This document shows, piece by piece, positions 1,845 through 35,358 of a DNA stretch of 64,000 nucleotides (positions are counted from its first letter, which is position 1; each line of letters begins with the position of its first letter). A model generated the notes under the pieces. It searched no databases. It saw nothing but the letters and a program-made list of their open reading frames with translations, and had not been told where the DNA came from. The stretch covers positions 5,209 through 69,208 of the forward strand of contig JAKAKE010000181.1 of NCBI GenBank assembly GCA_021824625.1. The letters run 5' to 3'. The position numbers and the translations under genes are program-made. The DNA is from Bacteroidota bacterium (lineage in GTDB: Bacteria > Bacteroidota > Ignavibacteria > Kapaibacteriales > UBA2268).

Positions 1845-4325
1845 ATGAGATTAAATTCGATTAAATCTTTTTTACCTAAAGCAGTTGTGTCCATACTCCT
1901 GTTTTTAATGGCTTCGCCTATGTTTGCAAGTGAAGCAGAATTAAAAATTCCCGTTTTACTACCGCATCAATTCAACCTGTTATTAATAGGAATTGCTGTC
2001 TGCGTTCTTGGTATGATTTTCGGGATGTACGAGTTTTTTCATTTAAAAAAGCTCAAAGCTCATAATTCCATGCTTGACGTTGCTGAGCTTATTTTCCAGA
2101 CAGCAAAAACTTACCTTTTACAGCAAGGTAAATTTCTTATTCTTCTGTTTGCTCTTGTGGGTACTGCCATTGCAGTCTATTTCGGCGTTCTGAGTAAGAA
2201 CGAAGCAGGCCATACCATGGGATTCGGAGGTGTGCTTTTAATTCTTGGCTGGTCTGTTGTAGGTATCATGGGTTCTTATGCTGTAGCATGGTTCGGTATA
2301 AGGGTTAATACACTCGCAAACAGCAGAATGGCATTTGCTTCACTCGAGAAAAAACCTCTGAAGCTTTTAAACATACCGCTTCAGGCAGGTATGAGCATCG
2401 GTGTTCTTTTGATATGCGTTGAACTTATTATGATGCTTATCATTTTACTGTTTATCCCAAGGGAATTTGCCGGAGCTTGTTTCATCGGTTTTGCAATCGG
2501 TGAATCACTCGGTGCAAGTGCTCTTCGTATCGCAGGTGGTATTTTCACTAAGATAGCAGACATAGGCTCCGACCTGATGAAAATCGTTTTCAATCTCAAG
2601 GAAGATGACCCGAGCAACCCGGGTGTTATCGCTGACTGCGTCGGCGACAATGCCGGTGACAGCGTTGGCCCGACTGCAGACGGCTTTGAAACTTATGGTG
2701 TAACCGGTGTTGCACTCATCAGCTTCATTGTCCTGGCAGTGCTCCCGCAATACCAGGCTGAACTCATTACATGGATTTTCATAATGCGTATTGCAATGAT
2801 TCTCACTTCTCTCGTTGCATTCTACATTAATAAATTCATCAGCAAAATCAGGTATGGAGGAAAGGATGAACTCGATTTTGAAGTTCCGTTGACCATGCTT
2901 GTTTGGATTACTTCTATCCTTTCAATCATAATTACATTCATAATCAGCTACTGGCAATTATTCGGTTTGAAAGACCCGGCAGGTAATGCCACAAACCTGT
3001 GGCTGGTTCTTGCTGTAATCATAAGCTGTGGTACGCTTGGTGCAGCACTGATTCCCGAGTTCACAAAAATATTCACAAGTACGAAATCGAGACATACAAA
3101 GGAAGTTGTCGTAGCATCCCGTGAAGGTGGTGCCTCACTTACAATTCTTTCAGGACTTGTATCCGGCAACTTCTCTGCTTTCTGGCTTGGCATGGTTTTC
3201 TTCGCATTGATGTTCATTGCATACCAGGCAAGCACACACGGATTGAATCAATTCATGACTTATGAATCAATATTTGCTTTCGGTTTAGTTGCTTTCGGTT
3301 TTCTCGGCATGGGACCCGTTACGATTGCCGTTGACAGTTATGGGCCTGTAACCGATAATGCTCAGTCCATATATGAATTATCAATGATTGAAGGCATAGC
3401 CGGAATAGATAAAGAAATCGAGAAAGATTTTGGTTTTAAACCGAATTTTGATAAGGCAAAAGATTATCTCGAGGCAAATGATGGAGCCGGAAATACATTC
3501 AAAGCCACCTCGAAGCCTGTACTCATCGGCACTGCCGTTGTAGGTGCAACCACAATGATTTTCTCTCTCATACTTGTTCTAAAGAAAGTCATTCTTCCTC
3601 CGGGTGTCGAGCCTACTGCTATTTTGAATATTTTGAATCCATATACGATTCTTGGTTTCATCTGTGGCGGTGCTGTTATTTACTGGTTCACAGGTGCATC
3701 CATGCAGGCTGTTTCAACAGGTGCTTACAAGGCTGTCGAGTTTATTAAACAGCATATCAAACTTGATTCAAAATCTTCAGTTGAAAATTCTAAAGAAGTT
3801 GTCAAGATTTGCACTCAATACGCACAGAAAGGAATGTTCAACATATTCGTAGCAATCTTCTCATTTGCACTTGCTTTTGCGTGTTTCTCAACATCACTCA
3901 AACCCACTGACCCTGCAAATTTACATTCGGCAATGCCTGCGGCATTCTTCATCAGCTACCTGATTTCAATCGCAATATTCGGTTTGTTCCAGGCAGTGTT
4001 CATGGCTAATGCAGGCGGCTGTTGGGACAATGCAAAGAAGATTGTCGAGATTGACCTGAAGGAAAAAGGGACTGAACTCCACGCCGCTACGGTTATCGGC
4101 GACACAGTAGGAGACCCGTTCAAAGACACTTCATCGGTTGCATTGAACCCAATCATCAAGTTCACGACACTATTCGGATTGCTCGCAATGGAAATAGCAA
4201 TCGTTCCCGAATTTGTCAGTACAGCTCCCTATGTAGGCGGATTTTTCTTCGCATTAGCTTTGGTCTTTGTCTATAGGTCATTCTTCTCTATGAGAATACC
4301 ACCGAAGCCTGTAGGAGCAAAGTAG
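1845..4325 (+). CDS. hppA: membrane-bound proton-translocating pyrophosphatase (H+-PPase), probably K+-independent type
   Basis: 826 aa polytopic protein with the hallmark motifs GGIFTKIADIGSDLMKIVF, DDPSNPGVIADCVGDNAGDSVGPTADGFETYG and DTVGDPFKDTSSVALNPIIKF; the GNTFKAT motif has Lys at the K+-dependence position. Confidence 0.9.
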   Translation: MRLNSIKSFLPKAVVSILLFLMASPMFASEAELKIPVLLPHQFNLLLIGIAVCVLGMIFGMYEFFHLKKLKAHNSMLDVAELIFQTAKTYLLQQGKFLILLFALVGTAIAVYFGVLSKNEAGHTMGFGGVLLILGWSVVGIMGSYAVAWFGIRVNTLANSRMAFASLEKKPLKLLNIPLQAGMSIGVLLICVELIMMLIILLFIPREFAGACFIGFAIGESLGASALRIAGGIFTKIADIGSDLMKIVFNLKEDDPSNPGVIADCVGDNAGDSVGPTADGFETYGVTGVALISFIVLAVLPQYQAELITWIFIMRIAMILTSLVAFYINKFISKIRYGGKDELDFEVPLTMLVWITSILSIIITFIISYWQLFGLKDPAGNATNLWLVLAVIISCGTLGAALIPEFTKIFTSTKSRHTKEVVVASREGGASLTILSGLVSGNFSAFWLGMVFFALMFIAYQASTHGLNQFMTYESIFAFGLVAFGFLGMGPVTIAVDSYGPVTDNAQSIYELSMIEGIAGIDKEIEKDFGFKPNFDKAKDYLEANDGAGNTFKATSKPVLIGTAVVGATTMIFSLILVLKKVILPPGVEPTAILNILNPYTILGFICGGAVIYWFTGASMQAVSTGAYKAVEFIKQHIKLDSKSSVENSKEVVKICTQYAQKGMFNIFVAIFSFALAFACFSTSLKPTDPANLHSAMPAAFFISYLISIAIFGLFQAVFMANAGGCWDNAKKIVEIDLKEKGTELHAATVIGDTVGDPFKDTSSVALNPIIKFTTLFGLLAMEIAIVPEFVSTAPYVGGFFFALALVFVYRSFFSMRIPPKPVGAK

Positions 4326-23831: not shown

Positions 23832-24386
23832 ATGAAAACTGCATTGTTCTTTTCTGTAGTTCTAACCTTTCTTTTTTTGTTAACTGATATTTTACAATGT
23901 CAAGAGAAAGGAGTAACTAAAATAAGTATTAAAATAACAAGCACAGCATTTATCGAAGGGGGTTTATTACCTAAAATCTATACTTGTGAAGGGAAAAATA
24001 TATCTCCACCCCTTGCCTGGAGTAATTTGCCTGAAGGAACAAAAAGCATAGCTCTCATCAATGATGACCCTGATGCTCCGATGGGAACATGGGTACACTG
24101 GGTTATTTATAATATACCTCCAACTGAAACAGGATTAAAGGAAGAAATTCCATCAGAAAATATTTTACCAAACGGAGCCAAGCAGGGTATTACAGATTTC
24201 AGAAGAGTGGGGTATGGGGGACCCTGCCCTCCCAGCGGCACACACAGGTATTTTTTCAAGCTCTATGCTCTTGATAAAATTCTTGAATTGGAACCGGGAG
24301 TCAGCAAAGGACAACTCCTGACAGCAATGGAAGGTCACATCTTGGGAACTGGGCAGTTGGTAGGAAAATACAAAAAGGCACTTTAG
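23832..24386 (+). CDS. YbhB/YbcL (PEBP/Raf-kinase-inhibitor-like) family protein with signal peptide
   Basis: GKNISPPLAWSNLPEGTKSIALINDDPDAPMGTWVHWVIYNIPP and GPCPPSGTHRYFFKLYALD are the PEBP signature motifs; AGGAG SD 7 nt upstream. Confidence 0.85.
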   Translation: MKTALFFSVVLTFLFLLTDILQCQEKGVTKISIKITSTAFIEGGLLPKIYTCEGKNISPPLAWSNLPEGTKSIALINDDPDAPMGTWVHWVIYNIPPTETGLKEEIPSENILPNGAKQGITDFRRVGYGGPCPPSGTHRYFFKLYALDKILELEPGVSKGQLLTAMEGHILGTGQLVGKYKKAL

Positions 24387-24390
24387 GATT

Positions 24391-24425
24391 TGTAGGATTC
24401 GAGGATTGCAGGATTACAATCATAT
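24391..24425. repeat. solo AGGATT-array repeat (ttAGGATTtgtAGGATTcgAGGATTgcAGGATT)
   Basis: Four AGGATT motifs at 8-9 bp spacing immediately after the PEBP stop; same motif family as the GxxExxY-cassette inverted repeats. Confidence 0.7.
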
Positions 24426-24535: not shown

Positions 24536-24880
24536 ATGATAGAAGCACCAAAAAATCCTGCTGGTATCGTTGTTCGATGGCTTGCAAGGGCATTAAGTGT
24601 ACTGATAATTCTTATTTTCGCCATGTTTGCTTTAGGCGAAGGTTTTGGAGTGGGTCCTGTAGAAACAAACGAAATAATATTATTTATTATATTATTACTT
24701 TCATTAGCCGGTATTGTTTATTCATTCTTCAATGAGAAATTAGGAGGCTTGGGAACATTAGCCTTTGGTATAATTTTTTTAATTGTTGACCGGCATTTCA
24801 ACTTTTATTACTTGTTTATTCCTTTTACAGGTATTTTGTTTTTGGTTTCCTGGCTGTTGTCAAAAGAAAAGAAGAATTAA
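24536..24880 (+). CDS. small hypothetical membrane protein (3 TM)
   Basis: Hydrophobic helices; N-terminal RWLARALSVLIILIF resembles the next ORF (RWFARMPAIILSLFSVIL), suggesting a tandem paralog pair. Confidence 0.35.
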   Translation: MIEAPKNPAGIVVRWLARALSVLIILIFAMFALGEGFGVGPVETNEIILFIILLLSLAGIVYSFFNEKLGGLGTLAFGIIFLIVDRHFNFYYLFIPFTGILFLVSWLLSKEKKN

Positions 24881-24924
24881 GCTATTTTTCAATAAAAAAT
24901 GATACAGGGCAGGACAATCCTGAT

Positions 24925-25146
24925 TTGCAAATAATGAGATGGTTTGCCAGAATGCCGGCAATAATATTATCTCTTTTTTCTGTGATATTGATGAGCAGTT
25001 TTGTTGACCATTTATCACAAACAAAAGATAGCGATGGTTACTTGCTCATAATAATTACATTAATTTTGTTAGTGATTTGTTTTTCGATGTCTTTTTTTCA
25101 ATCAGAAATTGGGCAGTTCTTTGAGTTTTTTTTTCAATCATTATAA
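24925..25146 (+). CDS. small hypothetical membrane protein (2 TM), paralog of preceding ORF
   Basis: See above. Confidence 0.3.
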   Translation: MQIMRWFARMPAIILSLFSVILMSSFVDHLSQTKDSDGYLLIIITLILLVICFSMSFFQSEIGQFFEFFFQSL

Positions 25147-25489
25147 TTGTTTTTAACAATCCTTTTTGGATTTTAATTATCTATCATGCAATCAGTATTC
25201 TTATTCTTGTTGTATGGGTATTTTCACAAGAAAATAATTGGCATAATGAATTCGCATTAGACTAAGTAATAGAAAATTAAAATTATATTGAGTCTGATTG
25301 TAAATTATACATTATGTAAGTCTGAGCTTAGTCGAAGACTGATTAGAACAAGGTTGTCATACTTTGACTCCGCTCATTATGACAGATTTTCAATTAGACC
25401 TTATATAAAATAAATATATTTAATAAATTAAACGGCATCCATTCCGTCTATAATTTATATATTTTTAATTTTTCAGAAAGGACAAAGTT

Positions 25490-25594
25490 ATGGGAAAAGA
25501 TAAGAATGTAAAAAAGGAAGCAAAAAAGAAACCTGCAAAATCATTAATAGAAAAAAGAAAAGAAAAAAAGGAAAAAAAACTAAATAAAAAATAA
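25490..25594 (+). CDS. possible micro-ORF encoding 34-aa Lys-rich peptide (MGKDKNVKKEAKKKPAKSLIEKRKEKKEKKLNKK)
   Basis: Intact ATG...TAA ORF in an otherwise ORF-free 1.2-kb gap, preceded by purine-rich gaaaggacaaagtt; could equally be chance in A-rich DNA. Confidence 0.2.
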   Translation: MGKDKNVKKEAKKKPAKSLIEKRKEKKEKKLNKK

Positions 25595-26384
25595 GTCATT
25601 CTTAATATTTATAGATGTGTTAAATTTTATATTTGAGATGAGCTTAGTTTGTATTAGTTTCTGATATTGAACTTCTTGACCAATACAATGTTTACCATTG
25701 AGTAAGCATGAGTCGTTTCAGAAGAGGATAAAGGTTCTAAAACATTTACTCTAATAAGTTATACAAAATTATTATTTGTTTTTGTCTGCTTATTAGGGTC
25801 CAAGTTAATTCAATACTATTAACTGAAGTTTACTTTAAGTCATTGATTTTAGATAAACTTCTATCTCAGTAAGGAGTTGCTTAAGTAAGTCAATTATAGA
25901 CTATAAAATGATGATGATTTCACGATATCTGCTATAACACCTTCAATTCCATCCATTTTTGCTATAACCTCTTAATTGTTGAATAGTATTGGTAAATTGC
26001 AATAAAAAATTTTTTTTTTCCTGATTTCGTTTTTTAATAAATTTATAAAGGGATTTTGTTTTGTTTCTTTTGTTATTTTTAAAACATAAGAAGCAACAAA
26101 ATCACGGAATTCTGGAATCATATACAAAGTTGCTTGAATTATTCTGATTTCTAATGATGCCGTTCTGAATGAAGTGAAGATTGACAAAAGGTAAAATCGG
26201 TATTTTTGGAACAATCCAGTATAACGGATGGTTTATAATTATTCTTTTTCTTGATGTTTGATTTTTTTAATTCTATGCATAATGGAGAAAATGAATTGAT
26301 TATTGAAAATTAATTCAGAATCATGATTTTTAAGTCAGTAATGCATTTTGAAAATTATTAATATATTATAAATCGGGGTAAAGT

Positions 26385-29300
26385 ATGAAGAAGATATTTG
26401 TTTTCGTGGGTTGCATTTTAACTGCTATTATTTTTATTAGCTGTGGTTTAAGAAATGCAGTCGAGGTAGTTAGTTTCAATCCTTCAGGAAGCGTCGGAAC
26501 TTTAACAACATTCACAATTGAATTTTCAAAAGAACTTGCACCTGTTGATACGCAGGATAAATGGCTAACAGAGGAGTTTGTTAAGTTTGAACCAAAAATT
26601 CCCGGAAAATTCAAATGGACTTCTGCCAGCACACTTATTTTTTCACCCGATGTTCAACTCGAGCCAATACAAGAGTACTCAGCTGAAATTACCAAAAAGG
26701 TATTATTCGATAAAGACCTGAGTCTGGATGCTGAAACTATTGAATTTAAGACTCATGATTTTGATATAACAAAAGTTGATTTGTTCTGGACACACATACC
26801 TAATCAATACTACAAAGTGAGTGTACAGGCTAATCTTCATTTTAACTACCCTGTGAATCCGGATATGCTGAAACAGAATTTGCTCGTCGAGCATGACGGG
26901 AAACCGGTTACTAATTATCAAATTGTAACCAAGGAAAAATCGGATTTAATTGCAGTGAATTTCGGTGAAATTCAGCAGACTGATAAAGAACAGGTGTTCA
27001 AAATAACTGTGAAAAAAGGATTAATGAGTGTATTCGGTAAAAGTGGACTTTATGATGACAGAACTTTCAGTAATAAACTTGAACCAATTACTAAACTTGC
27101 AATAACAGGTGTAGCTTCTGGATTTGATGGGGCTACCGGGTGGATAGAAGTTTCTACGACACAGATGGTGGATGAAAAAAGATTGAAAGAATATGTTAAA
27201 ACGGAACCCTGGAAAGATTTATCATTCTTTGTGAGTGACAATTCATTCAGAATTGAAGCAAATCTTGAGAATGTGCAGGATGTAATGCTGAAAATCAGGA
27301 AAGGTTTGCCCGGGCTTTATGGCGGTGAATTGGAATTTGACTTTGAACAACAGGTTTCATTTGTAAATCTTGAACCTTCAATTAATTTTGCCGATAAAAA
27401 GGGAAAATACCTGATGCTTGGCGGCAATAAAAATTTGCAGGTGAATTTTGTTAATATTGATGAAGCTGATATTGAAGTTTCACAAGTATTTAAAAATAAT
27501 CTGCTATGGTTCCTCAATCAGAATTCTTATGATTATTATGATTACGAAGAAGATTATGGTTATAACTCAGATATATGGACCGGAGATTATGGAAAGACTT
27601 TATATGAAGAAAAAATTAATTTATTAAATAACAAAAACTGGCTTGAAAAAAAATATATCAATCTGAATAGAATTACCGGTCAAAAGTACAAAGGAATTTA
27701 TGTTGTTAATGTCAGGTCTTCTCAGGACAGGTGGATAGCAGACGCAAAAATGATTGCTATAACCGACCTTGGTATTATTTCTAAAAAATCCGGCAATGAA
27801 ATAATAGTTTTTGTAAACTCAATTGCAAAAGCCGAACCAGTCGAGGGAGTTGAGATTAGTGTTATTTCATCAAACAACCAAACACTACTGAATGGAAAAA
27901 CCGATAAAGAAGGAACAATAAGATTTACAGATGTCAGAAAAAAAATTGAAGGATTCACTCCAAGATTGATTGTTGCGGAGACTGCAAATGATTTCAATTA
28001 TATTGACCTGAAGGAAACATTCATCGAAACTTCAAGATTTGATGTCGGAGGTGTATTTGAATTTCTCGAGGATGTGAATACATTTATCTACAGCGATAGA
28101 AATATTTATCGTCCCGGTGAAAATGTTTTCCTATCGGCAATTGTAAGAAATGATAAAATGGAAGTTTTGAAAGATATTCCTGTGTTTTTGAAAATCATTA
28201 CTCCCACCGGTAAAACATTTACAGAAATGAAAAAACTGTTGAACGATGAGGGAAGTTTTGAAGCATCGTTCAGAACACCTGAATATGTACAAACAGGTGA
28301 ATACAGGGCAGAGGTTTATACCGGCTCGAATCAATTAATTGGAACATACAAATTCAGCGTCGAGGATTTTGTTCCCGATAAAATAAGGCTGATGCTAAAA
28401 TCCGATAAGGATTTTGCGTTCCCGGGAGACCAAATAGGAGTTAGTATTGATGCTGAATTTTTATTTGGAGCAAAAGCATCTGGTCTGAAATATGAATCTC
28501 ATATTAATCTCCGTCACAGGCCCTTTGTCAGCAAGAGATTTTCTGAATATGATTTTAATAATTCATCAAGAACTAATCCAATATATGAAGAAGTAAATAT
28601 GGATGGATTTTTGGATGGAAATGGAAAAGGAAGAGTTGATTATGTTGTGCCGCATGATATTAAGGGTAGCGGAATTGTAACCTGCTATACTTATGTTAAT
28701 GTATTCGACCTGACGGGTAGAACAGTAAATAGAGCGGCAACTACCGACATTTACCCGAAGGATTATTTTATTGGATTCAAGTCTTCGGGATATTATTTCG
28801 GAACAAATGACAGATTGAATTTTAAGACTGCCGCTGTTGACCACAGCGATAAACCCATTAAAGGATTTAATGCGGCAGTAAAGCTTGTCCGCTTTGATTG
28901 GCAGACTATCCTCAAGAAAGATAATAACGACAGGTATTTTTATGCTTCCGAAGAAAAAGAAATTGTTGAATGGCAGAAGAATATGAGTTTAAACGGTGGG
29001 ACTAAGGACATATCTTTCACTGTGTCTAAATCCGGAAGATATGAATTACGAATATCGAAAGAAGGTGAGGATGAATATCAAAAGAAATCATTCTATGCTT
29101 ATGGATGGGTTAACACAACAGCATCATCATTTCAGGTTGATAAGGAAGGAAGAGTTGATATTGTTTTCGATAAATCTCAATATGAACCCGGCAATAAAGC
29201 AAAAATTCTATTTAATTGCCCGTTTGCAGGGAAGCTGCTTGTCAGTTTCGAAAGAAATGGTGTTTATGATTATCAATATATTGAAATGGAGAGCAAATCC

Positions 29301-31850: not shown

Positions 31851-32315
31851 ATGTCTGAAATTAAGCCGAACAAAAGTCGAAAAATTATTCGGATTGTGAT
31901 TTATTCACTGATTTTTGTTTTTGTTTTAATCCAGTTCATTCCGGTTAACAGGACAAACCCACCTGTGAAAAGCGAGCCAAAATGGGATTCAGATAAGACA
32001 AAGCAATATGCAATCAGAGCTTGTTATGACTGTCACAGCAGCAAAACAAAATGGCCTCTTTATTCACACATTGCTCCATTATCATGGCTCATAATAAGTC
32101 ATGTTGAAGAAGGTCGGGAGGAATTGAATTTTTCGGAATTTAAATTAGGAGACGGAAAAGAAGCCGCTGAAGTTGTTGAGCATGACATCATGCCACTTAA
32201 CAGTTATGTAATTCTTCATCCCGATGCCAAACTTACTTATAAAGAGAAGGTAGAGTTTGTCAAAGGGCTTGTTGCTACATTTGGCAGGAAGGTAAAGAAG
32301 GGTGATGAGGATTAA
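31851..32315 (+). CDS. heme-binding domain protein (Haem_bd/PF14376-like) with CxxCH motif and N-terminal TM anchor
   Basis: AIRACYDCHSSKTKWPLYSHIAP contains c-type heme motif CYDCH; N-terminal hydrophobic helix; last four codons lie inside the tandem-duplicated repeat. Confidence 0.55.
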   Translation: MSEIKPNKSRKIIRIVIYSLIFVFVLIQFIPVNRTNPPVKSEPKWDSDKTKQYAIRACYDCHSSKTKWPLYSHIAPLSWLIISHVEEGREELNFSEFKLGDGKEAAEVVEHDIMPLNSYVILHPDAKLTYKEKVEFVKGLVATFGRKVKKGDED

Positions 32316-32489
32316 AGCAACTGTCTTTATTAGGATTTGTAGGATTAAAGGATGATAGGATATCTATGAAATATGAGGAATTGACACATAAAATAGGATG
32401 AGGATTAAAGCAACTGTCTTTATTAGGATTTGTAGGATTAAAGGATGATAGGATTTGAATGAAATATGAGGAATTGACTCATAAGATTA
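32304..32489 (+). repeat. 93-bp tandem duplication (2 copies) spanning left inverted repeat and first 10-11 codons of the GxxExxY gene
   Basis: Copy 1 32304-32396 carries a truncated start (atgaaatatgaggaattgacacataaaatagga TGA = MKYEELTHKIG*); copy 2 32397-32489 carries the real start at 32459; copies differ at a few positions. Confidence 0.85.
32415..32439. repeat. left terminal inverted repeat tgtctttattaggatttgtaggatt (also present in duplicated copy at 32322-32346)
   Basis: Perfect 25/25 reverse-complement match to 33016-33040; similarity extends ~15 bp further with mismatches. Confidence 0.85.
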
Positions 32490-32872
32490 TCGGATGTGCA
32501 ATGAAAGTTCATTCTTCTCTTGGTAATGGATTTCAGGAAGTTATATATCAGAGAGCTTTAGCATTAGAATTTGAAAAACAAGAACTGAGTTACATGAGAG
32601 AAATGGAGATGCCGATTTATTATGATGATACTAATATTGGTACTCGTAGAGTTGATTTTTTCGTTGAAGATTTGATAATGGTTGAACTTAAAGCTGTAAT
32701 AAAATTAGATGACATGCATTTAAATCAAGCAATGAATTATTGTCAGGCATATAATCTTCCAATCGGTCTTCTGATTAATTTCGGAAGCAATAGCCTTGAG
32801 TTCAAAAGAGTATATAACGTTAATCATCCTTTGAATAAAGATTACAAAAAAAATAAACCAAAATTAGTCTGA
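32459..32872 (+). CDS. GxxExxY family protein (PD-(D/E)XK nuclease-fold)
   Basis: N-terminal MKYEELT.KIIGCAM.VH..LG.GF.E.VY motif (GNGFQEVIYQRAL = GxxExxY) and conserved D/E-x-K core (RVDFFVEDLIMVELK). Confidence 0.8.
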   Translation: MKYEELTHKIIGCAMKVHSSLGNGFQEVIYQRALALEFEKQELSYMREMEMPIYYDDTNIGTRRVDFFVEDLIMVELKAVIKLDDMHLNQAMNYCQAYNLPIGLLINFGSNSLEFKRVYNVNHPLNKDYKKNKPKLV

Positions 32873-33015
32873 ATTAGGATTTGTTGGATTATTGGATGAT
32901 AGGATAAAATAAAAATGAGAAAAAATCAACATCATATTAAATTGATATGATAATTTATTAAAGATAATTTATTTGGTAAATGTATTATGAATTATAAATA
33001 ATCCTATAATCGTAA

Positions 33016-33040
33016 AATCCTACAAATCCTAATAAAGACA
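33016..33040. repeat. right terminal inverted repeat aatcctacaaatcctaataaagaca
   Basis: Reverse complement equals left IR; lies 5 bp upstream of the pbpC GTG start. The related AGGATT array at 32873-32907 lies between the GxxExxY stop and this IR. Confidence 0.85.
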
Positions 33041-33045
33041 ATGGT

Positions 33046-35358
33046 GTGATTTTGATTTATAAAAAATACTCAAAGGAAATCAAACCTGCTTTGTTCAGCA
33101 CGGCAGGTTTGTTATTTATTTTCATTTTAATCGAAATAATTTTTCCTCTGCCGAAATTAAAACCTTTTTCAAAAGTAATTATGGCTTCCGATGGAACTGT
33201 ATTGTCAGCTTATCTTACGAGGGATGATAAATGGAGGTTGCGTTGCAGCCTTGATGAAGTTTCTTCTGACCTGACAAAAGCAATTATCGAGAAAGAAGAC
33301 AAATGGTTTTACTGGCATCCGGGCATCAATCCTGTTTCTATTGTGAGAGCTTTTACAACCAATATAATTAGAGGTAAAAGGGTGTCAGGGGCTTCGACAA
33401 TTACAATGCAGCTTGCCAGAATGTTTACTCCTTCAAATAGAACTTACTTTAATAAAATAATCGAAATATTCAGAGCTTTTCAAATCGAATTGCACTATTC
33501 AAAGAAAACAATTTTGGAGATGTATCTTAATTCTCTTCCTTACGGAGGGAATATTGAAGGTGTAAAATCTGCTTCATATATTTATTTCAATCGTCCTCCT
33601 GGAAAATTGAGTCTTGCTCAATCAATTTTGCTGACAGTAATTCCAAATGACCCGAATTTATACAGAATTGACAAATCAGTTTCATTTGCAAAATCAAAAA
33701 GGAATTATTGGATTAGACAATTTATGAGGGATAATGTTTTTCCTGTAAATTCATTGCATGACGCTTTATATGAGCCGATTGAAACTGCTCGATATAATAT
33801 ACCTTCTACTGCTCCTCATTTTTGTTATTACATAATGTCAAATTTCAATGGCGATAATATTCAAACTACATTAGAACTTGACAAACAGAAAAAAGCCGAA
33901 TCAATATTGTTGAATTATGTTGAAAGAAACAAACCGAAAGGAATATCCAACGGTGCTGTAATTATAATTGATAATAATAATTCTAATGTAGTTGCCTATT
34001 GCGGTTCCTCGGATTTCTACAATCAATCGGCATCAGGCCAGGTAAATGGAATCAGGGCTGTCAGGTCGCCCGGTTCAACACTCAAAGCGGGTTTGTATGC
34101 TTATGCATTTGACCTTGGAATATTAACACCAAAAATGAAATTGCTCGATGTTCCGACAGATTTCAGCGGATATGAACCTGAAAATTATTCGGAAAAATTC
34201 CATGGTGAAGTTACGGCAGAATTTGCTTTGATGAATTCATTGAATGTTCCTGCTGTAAGGCTTCTCGAAAAAGTAGGATTAAGCCAATTTTTATTATTAC
34301 TCGAAAAAGCCGGATTCAGAGATATTATTAAACAAAAAGAAAAACTTGGTTTGTCATTGATTCTTGGCGGATGCGGTGTCAGGATGGAACAACTTGCCGC
34401 TATGTATTCTGCTTATGCAAGGGAAGGCAAACTCTATCCTTTGAATTATATTAATAGAGAAGATAAAAGAAATTATGTACAAATTTTCTCACCGGGTGCT
34501 GTTTATATTGTTTCTCAAATATTATCAAACATCAAAAGGCCTGATTTCCCAAATGAACTTCTAAACAGAACCCGACTGCCCAAAATTGCATGGAAAACCG
34601 GGACATCTTATGGAAAGAAAGATGCATGGGCAGTTGGTTATAATCCCGATTATACAATTGCTGTGTGGATGGGTAATTTCGATGGCAAAGGTTCGCCGCA
34701 TTTATCCGGTTCGGAAATGGCTGTTCCTCTATTGTTTGATTTATTCAATGCTATTGATTACAATCCAAAAAAGAAATGGTTTAAGATGCCATCAGATGTT
34801 GGATATAGAGAAGTTTGTGTGGAAACCGGAAATATTCCATCAAAAAATTGCGGGCAAATAACATCTGATTATTACTTAAAAAATATTTCAACAAATGATA
34901 TATGTAGTTTGTATAAGGAATTTTATGTCAGCATTGATGAATCAGTACAATACTGTACCGAATGTCTTCCTGACGGAGGATATAAGAAAATCATGTATCC
35001 CGTTTATGACCCTGAGATTGTTTTGTGGAATTCATTAAATAATATTGTGTATAAAAAAATACCGCCTCATAATCCGGATTGCCAGGCAAAATTTTCAACC
35101 AAAGGGCCGAAAATAATTTCGCCCTCAGATAATTTTGAATATTTTATCGAAGATAAATCAGAACAGCAGATACTACTTCAAGCCGCAGGGGGAGAGGATG
35201 TACAAGTATTATACTGGTATATAAATGACAAATTCTTTGTAAAATCCAGACCTGAAGAAAAGCAATTCTTCATAGCAGAAAAAGGAAAAACTAAAATTAC
35301 ATGTCTTGACGATAAGGGAAGAAGCAGTACTGTTTTTATTGATGTAAAGATTTATTAA
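33046..35358 (+). CDS. pbpC: penicillin-binding protein 1C (bifunctional GT51 transglycosylase/transpeptidase); GTG start
   Basis: GT51 motifs (RAFTTNIIRGKRVSGASTITMQLARMF; ...EIFRAFQIELHYSKKTILEMYLN), transpeptidase SxxK (RSPGSTLK), SxN (MNSLN) and KTG (WKTGTSYG); C-terminal PbpC-specific domain; classic partner of bacterial A2M. Confidence 0.85.
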   Translation: MILIYKKYSKEIKPALFSTAGLLFIFILIEIIFPLPKLKPFSKVIMASDGTVLSAYLTRDDKWRLRCSLDEVSSDLTKAIIEKEDKWFYWHPGINPVSIVRAFTTNIIRGKRVSGASTITMQLARMFTPSNRTYFNKIIEIFRAFQIELHYSKKTILEMYLNSLPYGGNIEGVKSASYIYFNRPPGKLSLAQSILLTVIPNDPNLYRIDKSVSFAKSKRNYWIRQFMRDNVFPVNSLHDALYEPIETARYNIPSTAPHFCYYIMSNFNGDNIQTTLELDKQKKAESILLNYVERNKPKGISNGAVIIIDNNNSNVVAYCGSSDFYNQSASGQVNGIRAVRSPGSTLKAGLYAYAFDLGILTPKMKLLDVPTDFSGYEPENYSEKFHGEVTAEFALMNSLNVPAVRLLEKVGLSQFLLLLEKAGFRDIIKQKEKLGLSLILGGCGVRMEQLAAMYSAYAREGKLYPLNYINREDKRNYVQIFSPGAVYIVSQILSNIKRPDFPNELLNRTRLPKIAWKTGTSYGKKDAWAVGYNPDYTIAVWMGNFDGKGSPHLSGSEMAVPLLFDLFNAIDYNPKKKWFKMPSDVGYREVCVETGNIPSKNCGQITSDYYLKNISTNDICSLYKEFYVSIDESVQYCTECLPDGGYKKIMYPVYDPEIVLWNSLNNIVYKKIPPHNPDCQAKFSTKGPKIISPSDNFEYFIEDKSEQQILLQAAGGEDVQVLYWYINDKFFVKSRPEEKQFFIAEKGKTKITCLDDKGRSSTVFIDVKIY

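Follow-up and report, generated by a model that had tools for sequence, protein, structure and literature searches.

In this study, we analyzed a 64,000-nt stretch of contig JAKAKE010000181.1 from the Bacteroidota bacterium assembly GCA_021824625.1 (hereafter the window), in which a small gene of the GxxExxY family is enclosed by short terminal inverted repeats (TIRs) at the junction between a Haem_bd gene and pbpC. The repeat and the gene travel as a unit through many unrelated contexts. We lean toward the explanation that they form a cassette that is mobile over evolutionary time, encodes a PD-(D/E)XK nuclease of about 135 aa between its TIRs, gives rise to gene-less derivatives, and belongs to a family found in Bacteroidota, Ignavibacteria, and related phyla. 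The cassette family is widespread and apparently undescribed, a full-text literature search having found no description of the repeats or of the arrangement of TIRs around the gene. The copy in the window is an ordinary member of it.

The terminal repeat, which we call R, has the consensus AATTGTCTGAAT-TAGGATT-TG-TAGGATT-nn-AGGATT-a-TAGGATT and consists of a head and four direct sub-repeats that are 8-9 nt apart. A scan of one genome per species with the pattern TAGGATTTGTAGGATTNNAGGAT, which specifies 21 bases, yielded 79 sites at 63 loci in diverse metagenome-assembled genomes (MAGs) of Saprospiraceae, Chitinophagaceae, Sphingobacteriales, Prevotellaceae, Flavobacteriales, Ignavibacteria/Kapaibacterium, KSB1, and Poribacteria. 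Although the search did not include them, the 12 nt preceding the pattern are conserved as well, reading TGTCTGAAT in 70-85% of the sites. At the ends of cassettes, which measure about 40 nt, this head can carry an optional leading base, (T)TGTCTGAAT. A GxxExxY gene 60-88% identical to that of the window adjoins R at 18 of the 63 loci and is the only neighbour that recurs. The recurrent layout is also that of the window, with one R in the plus orientation 40-130 nt upstream, a second in the plus orientation over the stop codon, and a third in the minus orientation 76-130 nt further on. The layout with the copy over the stop codon, the R3 type, was also found at the loci L021, L028, L049, L056, and L075.

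The reverse test started from the protein. The 80 closest GxxExxY loci were picked from metagenomes by the protein alone; of the 28 closest, roughly two thirds contained R according to a strict R profile. Nearly all 80 loci have diverged ends of the same kind, with GTCTGAAT... before the ATG and ...ATTCAGAC over the last codons. Heads are present on both sides at 57 of the 80 loci, and 43 carry a clear TIR pair, defined as at least 24 of 40 positions in an ungapped comparison. The two arms of a locus agree with each other at 27.0 of 40 positions, versus 21.8 of 40 for arms taken across loci, a value that was reached by none of 2000 permutations. Sub-repeat variants (TTAGGATT versus CC[A/T]TGATT) switch on both arms together, and the TIR subtype follows the protein clade (79.6% versus 73.5% identity; 0 of 2000 permutations). 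In their inner halves, left and right arms differ systematically instead of complementing each other.

More distant members of the family have unrelated TIRs in the same geometry. The gene of Bacteroides finegoldii, whose product is 36% identical, lies within a 30-nt, 90% complementary pair of CAGAGGAC units placed 2 nt after the radA stop codon and 5 nt before the next start codon, and a GxxExxY gene of Treponema has the TIR TTGTCACACGGATTCG. An earlier sequence-only reading of the window had regarded a GxxExxY gene bounded by TIRs as unusual. On the contrary, this state is the norm for the clade of the window's gene, and it is also present in distant members of the family.

Comparison with relatives bears on the mobility that the same reading had proposed. 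The gene order a2m-Haem_bd-[x]-pbpC-cupin-RuvB, in which a2m encodes alpha-2-macroglobulin, is kept in relatives. An absence of empty sites at this locus and of further copies in the genome would have spoken against mobility; two relatives are empty, two are occupied, and copies of the repeat occur elsewhere. The site is occupied in Ignavibacteria bacterium RIFOXYC2_FULL_35_21 (L075), with the layout R-open reading frame (ORF)-R-loop-R, and in L082, where the GxxExxY frame is broken and the gene is a pseudogene. In L084 and L079 the site is empty, and the Haem_bd stop codon and the pbpC start codon are a mere 15 and 13 nt apart, respectively. Identity of the flanks makes the window, L084, and L075 a close trio and places L079 and L082 further out, so that a minimum of two gains or losses is required. 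Occupied and empty sites can be aligned along their flanks to within a few nucleotides of TGTCT...AGACA. At L082 (4462-5600), pbpC was called as two ORFs, of 149 and 615 aa, and no canonical start adjoins the right repeat; the GxxExxY frameshift and the split pbpC may reflect decay of both genes or sequencing errors.

The same comparison corrects the proposal that the insertion remodelled both a gene terminus and the pbpC translation-initiation region. The first repeat had been thought to supply the last four codons and the stop of the Haem_bd gene. In the relatives with an empty site, the Haem_bd gene has the same ...KKDED* end, and the terminus was therefore not rebuilt by the element: it is host sequence, inside which the duplicated unit merely starts. 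The downstream half of the proposal stands, since the sequence immediately before the pbpC start does consist of the right arm. The GxxExxY copies of the window and L075 are 82% identical at the nucleotide level, compared with 80-85% in the flanking genes, and have a dN/dS of 0.06. Judged by these sequence comparisons, the cassette of the window is an old, vertically inherited resident under strong purifying selection.

Insertion sites follow a pattern. The neighbouring genes are mostly co-oriented with the cassette gene, in 63 of 69 cases upstream and 47 of 59 downstream. Among the 43 clear pairs, the repeat head lies at a median of -1 nt from the upstream stop codon, the TGA or TAG of the head often being the stop codon itself, and the commonest gap between the right end and the next start codon is 1-2 nt. 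The cassette of the window fits this pattern of stop-start junctions, with 6 nt separating it from the Haem_bd TAA and 5 nt from the pbpC GTG. The 128 immediate neighbours include 19 HsdS, 8 HsdR N-termini, 7 N6 methylases, 3 EcoEI_R_C, and 3 ResIII. Components of type I restriction-modification (R-M) systems (HsdS, HsdR, and HsdM) make up about 30% of the immediate neighbours at L085-L164, and the remainder are very diverse, with 84 Pfam families. Two look-ups of the exact sequence both led into R-M operons. Type III and KilA-N contexts also occur (neighbours at L085-L164, and L165-L184).

The architecture of the locus is given in Table 1. The order of genes described from the sequence alone, with a GxxExxY ORF between the a2m-associated Haem_bd gene and pbpC, was confirmed by matches to PF13366, TIGR04256, PF14376, and TIGR02073. 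The perfect inverted repeat of 25 nt was recovered on both sides of the gene as well. The 25-mer TGTCTTTATTAGGATTTGTAGGATT has three exact sites in the window, 32322-32346 (+), 32415-32439 (+), and 33016-33040 (-), against a chance expectation of 0 matches in 100 shuffles. The weaker similarity noticed further inward extends the inverted repeat to 41 nt at 90% complementarity (32415-32455 / 33000-33040). The sequence-only reading had missed the fourth direct copy, R3, and a headless fragment far upstream, which starts at the TAG that terminates an unrelated PEBP/YbhB-family gene (23832-24386) and has no GxxExxY gene near it. The host sequence adjoining the cassette is AGCAAC / ATGGT in the window and AGCAAC / GTGGT in L075, and the GC content of the cassette is 27.7%, versus 35% in the flanks.

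Table 1. Features of the cassette locus and related sequences in the window
Feature	Position	Strand	Remarks
Headless repeat fragment	24383..24416	+	TAGGATTTGTAGGATTCGAGGATTGCAGGATT, four AGGATT units; nhmmer 30.7 bits
Haem_bd domain gene, upstream host gene	31851..32315	+	PF14376, E 2e-33; follows the alpha-2-macroglobulin gene; C-terminus ...GDED* is host sequence
Upstream copy of the 93-bp tandem duplication	32304..32396	+	18 nt of host flank, R1, and an 11-codon ORF stub; strain-polymorphic
R1, left-type repeat	32320..32361	+	Head TGTCTTTAT and four (N)AGGAT(T) units; holds the 25-mer; nhmmer R profile 40.8 bits
Stub ORF MKYEELTHKIG*	32366..32401	+	Ancestral-type 5' end, as in the L075 orthologue
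R2, left terminal repeat directly before the intact ORF	32413..32456	+	Holds the 25-mer; nhmmer 41.4 bits
GxxExxY / PDDEXK_3 gene, 137 aa	32459..32872	+	PF13366, TIGR04256; TGA stop within the R3 head
R3, diverged left-type direct copy	32866..32905	+	Consensus head GTCTGAAT; overlaps the ORF stop; pairs locally with R4; nhmmer 18.3 bits
AT-rich spacer (loop) between R3 and R4	32906..32999	+	Poorly conserved relative to L075: 73.8% identity over R3-R4, with indels in the loop
R4, right terminal repeat	33000..33042	-	Right-type inner part TTACGATTATAGGAT; outer 25 nt are the perfect complement of R1/R2; nhmmer 30.8 bits
pbpC (PBP1C), downstream host gene	33046..35358	+	TIGR02073, E 8.8e-212; N-terminus aligns with relatives from YKKYSKEIKPAL on

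R1, R2, and R4 share an unusual head variant with two derived substitutions (TGAAT to TTTAT), while R3 and L075 keep the consensus-type head. The outer ends, which both have the derived TTTAT, have therefore evolved in concert. When the inverted repeats were folded, a check that had been suggested for them, the outer arms paired within a 751-nt region (z -4.8), and R3 and R4 formed a local hairpin of -47.1 kcal/mol (z -6.5). The last AGGAT of R2 lies 6 nt before the ATG of the GxxExxY ORF and may serve as its ribosome-binding site. No terminators were predicted in or around the cassette of the window, and promoter-like sites there are at chance level, which would fit expression of the gene by read-through of the a2m operon.

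The only ORF of the cassette matches PF13366, and Pfam and NCBIfam gave only PDDEXK_3 and GxxExxY for it, so that it is not a homologue of the HUH/Y1 transposases. For the other large ORFs of the window, the 25 most frequent of the 59 Pfam families include no transposase or integrase family. There was no relevant match to Rfam, either in the whole window at the gathering threshold or in 32200-33150 at a permissive E-value; the window yielded only two tRNAs. Upstream of the a2m gene, 1.5 kb (24880-26385) are without an ORF of at least 100 aa; the stretch contains a Lys-rich ORF of 34 codons near 25491-25595 and what appears to be a broken second copy of the DUF7670 gene (24536-24880).

The tandem duplication of 93 bp at the left end, with the stub ORF described from the sequence alone, was confirmed at 32304-32489. 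Its two units (32304-32396 and 32397-32489) agree throughout the first 58 nt and differ at seven positions, all of them within the last 35 nt. Five independent assemblies (L001, L003, L004, L010, and L013) carry the duplication and two (L002/L009 and L015) have the single-copy form, while L075 is without it; carriers and non-carriers are 99.84-99.92% identical over 10 kb. Because it is present and absent in independent, nearly identical assemblies, the duplication is a strain polymorphism and not a stutter of assembly. A recent origin in situ from the single-copy form was also considered and was rejected, since the stub copy matches the ancestral-type 5' end of L075 and the single-copy strains keep the derived copy. 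The single-copy form fits the loss of one unit, which could have occurred by recombination within the identical 58 nt. The last 99 nt of one MAG contig (L004, 5223-5321) match the pbpC region in reverse, which is probably a chimeric contig end.

Copies of R occur not only beside genes but also as solo copies, as inverted pairs with short loops, and as tandem arrays in one orientation, with unit lengths of 42, 81, and 97 bp. Several MAGs contain more than one R locus, for example JAERMQ01 with six, CAYOBX01 with five, and MHAY01 with three. Tandem arrays in the same orientation were observed at L035 (5985-6280, period 97 bp) and L062 (3715-5055, period 81 bp), and further ones at L065 (3020-3230, period 42), L049 (4485-4690, period 39-88), and L044 (42-200, period 48 bp). 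They are not CRISPR-like arrays, as the apparent spacers between the copies are themselves repeated. In the Saprospiraceae MAG CAYOBX01, three contigs (L020, L048, and L051) have the same repeat-loop-repeat element of about 100 nt; its copies agree in the loop, GCAGTAGCACGTTTGAAAATCC, and in a portion of the left flank, which looks like within-genome amplification of a gene-less derivative. In the Ignavibacteria MAG MHAY01, the head variant GTCTGTAT is found in L023 and L075, and a TTTGAGGAT unit in L023, L062, and L075; the features shared by the gene-less arrays and the cassette suggest homogenisation within the genome or common descent.

A gene-less repeat pair can also become part of a coding sequence. 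At L054 (~1490-1605) and L077 (~3200-3320), the N6_Mtase and Methylase_S domains are separated by an in-frame pair of about 120 nt, resulting in a single HsdM-HsdS fusion ORF of 857 aa, in which an ATG after the right repeat resembles the former start of hsdS. A GxxExxY cassette is located just upstream of the operon with this fusion. As a control of specificity, viral contigs were searched with the 16-mer TGTCTGAATTAGGATT, which gave 58 matches, of which 57 failed to extend and only L191 extended into R. These 57 matches are attributable to chance, and phages were therefore rejected as carriers of the cassette. The plasmid records numbered only 8, and none of them was mobilisable.

The protein matches PF13366 (PDDEXK_3) with an E value of 1.7e-38 and 132 bits against a cut-off of 22, over model positions 2-117 of 117, and TIGR04256 (GxxExxY) with an E value of 7.4e-40 and 136 bits against a cut-off of 35. 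The motif G24-F-Q-E27-V-I-Y30, D66, and E76-L-K78, which correspond to the GxxExxY signature and the catalytic pattern of PD-(D/E)XK enzymes, are invariant across 48 homologues. The best 120 clusters are at least 78% identical and have 57 invariant columns. The family as a whole is very large, with at least 8000 scored candidates at E <= 1e-5 in the protein search. Neither sequence nor profile searches found relatives in the PDB, the defence models of PADLOC gave 0 families at E <= 0.01, and PHROGs gave a single weak match only.

How could such a cassette spread? Because E27, D66, E76, and K78 are invariant and each end has four sub-repeats, we infer that the protein acts on its own ends. Multi-site transposon ends have arrays of sub-repeats that are comparable to those at the ends of the cassette. 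In the mechanism we propose, the cassette would lack a promoter of its own and be expressed by read-through from the host operon, and the nuclease would recognise the sub-repeat arrays at the ends, or a hairpin formed by them. Breaks initiated by the nuclease and repaired through the repeats could lead to spread, loss, and rearrangement, by homing-like copying into gene-less repeat pairs or junctions and by recombination between copies of the repeat. No classical transposase would be involved. In the window, the right arm would by now be the translation-initiation region of pbpC, and the cassette would be selectively maintained.

The mobility that had been read from the sequence holds over evolutionary time, as seen in the empty sites, the dozens of unrelated contexts, and the dispersed gene-less copies. 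Several observations weigh against a mobile nuclease cassette. Near-identical cassettes in different contexts were not found among 118 genes, so recent movement was not demonstrated; pairs above 90% nucleotide identity were either at the same locus, with flanks shared on at least the downstream side, or in no clearly different context. Comparison of empty and occupied flanks revealed no target-site duplication, which the sequence-only reading had recommended looking for. The orthologous copies have diverged about like their flanks or more (dS of 1.34 versus 0.73-0.82), the strong purifying selection could equally indicate a gene that benefits the host, and the patchy presence can be explained by losses only. 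On the side of the protein, the full-text literature search returned only annotation mentions of GxxExxY and no described biochemical activity. The AlphaFold2 model from 48 close homologues is poor, with a mean pLDDT of 55, and its alpha-alpha-beta-beta-beta-alpha-beta order, although compatible with a PD-(D/E)XK fold, is unreliable; the fold assignment therefore rests on the hidden Markov model matches.

A serious rival, which we nevertheless consider unlikely, is that the gene is a domesticated accessory nuclease that benefits the host in defence or nucleic-acid processing, the repeats being regulatory or recombination sites, like domesticated REP-associated tyrosine transposases (RAYTs) with their repetitive extragenic palindromic (REP) sequences. 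It would account for the low dN/dS over a long residence at one locus, the extreme conservation of the protein, and the type I R-M neighbours. It would also account for the lack of signs of a recent burst and for the virtual absence of the cassette from phage contigs and from mobilisable plasmids (with the small number of plasmid records noted above). However, no PADLOC model matches, the contexts are very diverse and include an a2m/pbpC operon here, and gene-less repeats are scattered beside unrelated genes. In addition, the gene is dispensable, because it is a pseudogene in L082 and missing from the empty sites of close relatives.

The element might also act at the RNA level. A long stem could loop out the ORF and join the upstream stop to the downstream start, or a site for processing by RNase III or for stabilisation could set the expression of pbpC, with mobility being secondary. 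The stable folds of the 751-nt region and of R3-R4, the arms abutting the stop and start codons, and the sense orientation of cassettes within operons are what this explanation would lead one to expect, as are the two shared derived substitutions of the outer arms, which keep the 25-bp stem perfect. However, in the 43 TIR pairs, mismatches compatible with G.U pairing are not enriched (51 in sense versus 67 in antisense), and the majority of all mismatches are transversions. Left and right arms differ systematically in their inner halves, Rfam gave no match, and solo copies and same-orientation tandem copies cannot form stems. We regard such a role as possible but quite improbable, and do not favour it as the primary constraint. 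Chance similarity or an artefact of assembly deserves mention only because all sources are metagenome-assembled and Logan contigs break inside the repeat. It is effectively refuted by the three exact sites of the 25-mer against none expected, by the occurrence of the arrangement in five independent assemblies and of the single-copy form in two, by the seven differences between the duplicate copies, and by an architecture common to another species (L075).

A TIR-bounded nuclease cassette that is mobile over evolution is thus the explanation we prefer, and a more far-reaching and rather doubtful version of it can be formulated. The GxxExxY cassettes might be a new class of autonomous mobile element with the nuclease as its only protein. 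The nuclease would recognise the sub-repeat arrays of the asymmetric TIRs, and the element would be copied through host repair into stop-start junctions of operons or into its own gene-less repeat pairs. Such elements could be responsible for cross-phylum repeats resembling REPs or miniature inverted-repeat transposable elements (MITEs), and possibly for ORF-bearing stem-loop insertions such as the intervening sequences of rRNA.

The interest of these findings lies in the cassette family rather than in the copy of the window. The GxxExxY family gains a testable hypothesis, that of a nuclease acting on its own terminal repeats. The findings also explain a class of intergenic repeats at which assemblies of metagenomes break and through which adjacent genes can be fused or separated. 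For the locus of the window, the element is predicted to shape the translation initiation of pbpC and the mRNA structure of the a2m operon, and recombination between copies of the repeat is predicted to produce length variation among strains.

Several known systems share features with the cassette. Like the cassettes of integrons, which consist of an ORF and attC, it would have a promoter-less ORF read from outside; downstream of the ORF, R3, the loop, and R4 make up an imperfect inverted repeat spanning about 175 bp. Unlike them, it has repeats on both sides and occurs as single cassettes scattered in core operons and not in arrays anchored at attI. Identity with an integron cassette was rejected, as there is no integrase family among the 25 most frequent of the 59 Pfam families of the window's other large ORFs. 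Homing endonuclease genes, which are free-standing or intron-borne and include the gene for the small PD-(D/E)XK enzyme I-Ssp6803I (which we mention as a lead only), likewise encode only a small nuclease, are present or absent at conserved sites, and spread between lineages. Copying via host repair, as proposed here, would be a further likeness. The cassette, however, is not in an intron or intein, is bounded by TIRs, and is accompanied by gene-less repeats, and the resemblance is one of coding capacity only.

The sequence-only reading had linked GxxExxY genes to the intervening sequences of 23S rRNA. The classical ORF of these sequences belongs to the four-helix-bundle family PF05635, and the insertions are in helix 25 or 45 of 23S rRNA. 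They have in common with the cassette a small ORF within inverted repeats, a long stem that can form in the host transcript, and a host unit that need not be destroyed. The cassette, in contrast, lies between protein-coding genes and its ORF belongs to PF13366 and not PF05635. No 23S motif was found in the 242 fetched loci, which gives the proposed link no support. Intervening sequences of 23S rRNA that carry ORFs are attributed to Ralph and McClelland (1993), as cited in PMC3936711.

Pairs of an insertion sequence (IS) and its MITEs, such as the Correia elements of Neisseria, come closer. TIRs with TG...CA ends, multi-copy, short, gene-less intergenic derivatives, and long stems that could form in read-through transcripts are shared with the cassette. 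As in IS and MITEs, the TIRs are at the exact ends of the insert, and the element is present or absent at an orthologous site and has dispersed copies. A target-site duplication and near-identical copies in different contexts, which would also be expected of them, were not found, and neither was a recognised transposase family in the cassette ORF or among the 25 most frequent Pfam families of the window's other large ORFs. Differences further include TIRs that are composed of four direct sub-repeats and are unlike at the left and the right end, an ORF that is not a DDE, serine, or tyrosine transposase, and insertion in the sense orientation at operon junctions.

The other close parallel is with REPs and their hairpin-forming pairs (REPINs), which together with a RAYT form REPtrons. 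Here too, one small gene lies between inverted short repeats that are dispersed as singlets, hairpin pairs, and arrays, and the gene, which is subject to purifying selection, usually keeps its location. The cassette protein differs in being of the PD-(D/E)XK type and not an HUH/Y1 (IS200/IS605-like) transposase. Its repeat shows conservation across phyla and is transferred along with the gene, whereas REPs are species-specific, and the cassettes are placed exactly in stop-start junctions inside operons. By analogy, the cassette would work most like a REP/RAYT system or an IS/MITE pair, though its protein belongs neither to the HUH nor to the DDE enzymes.

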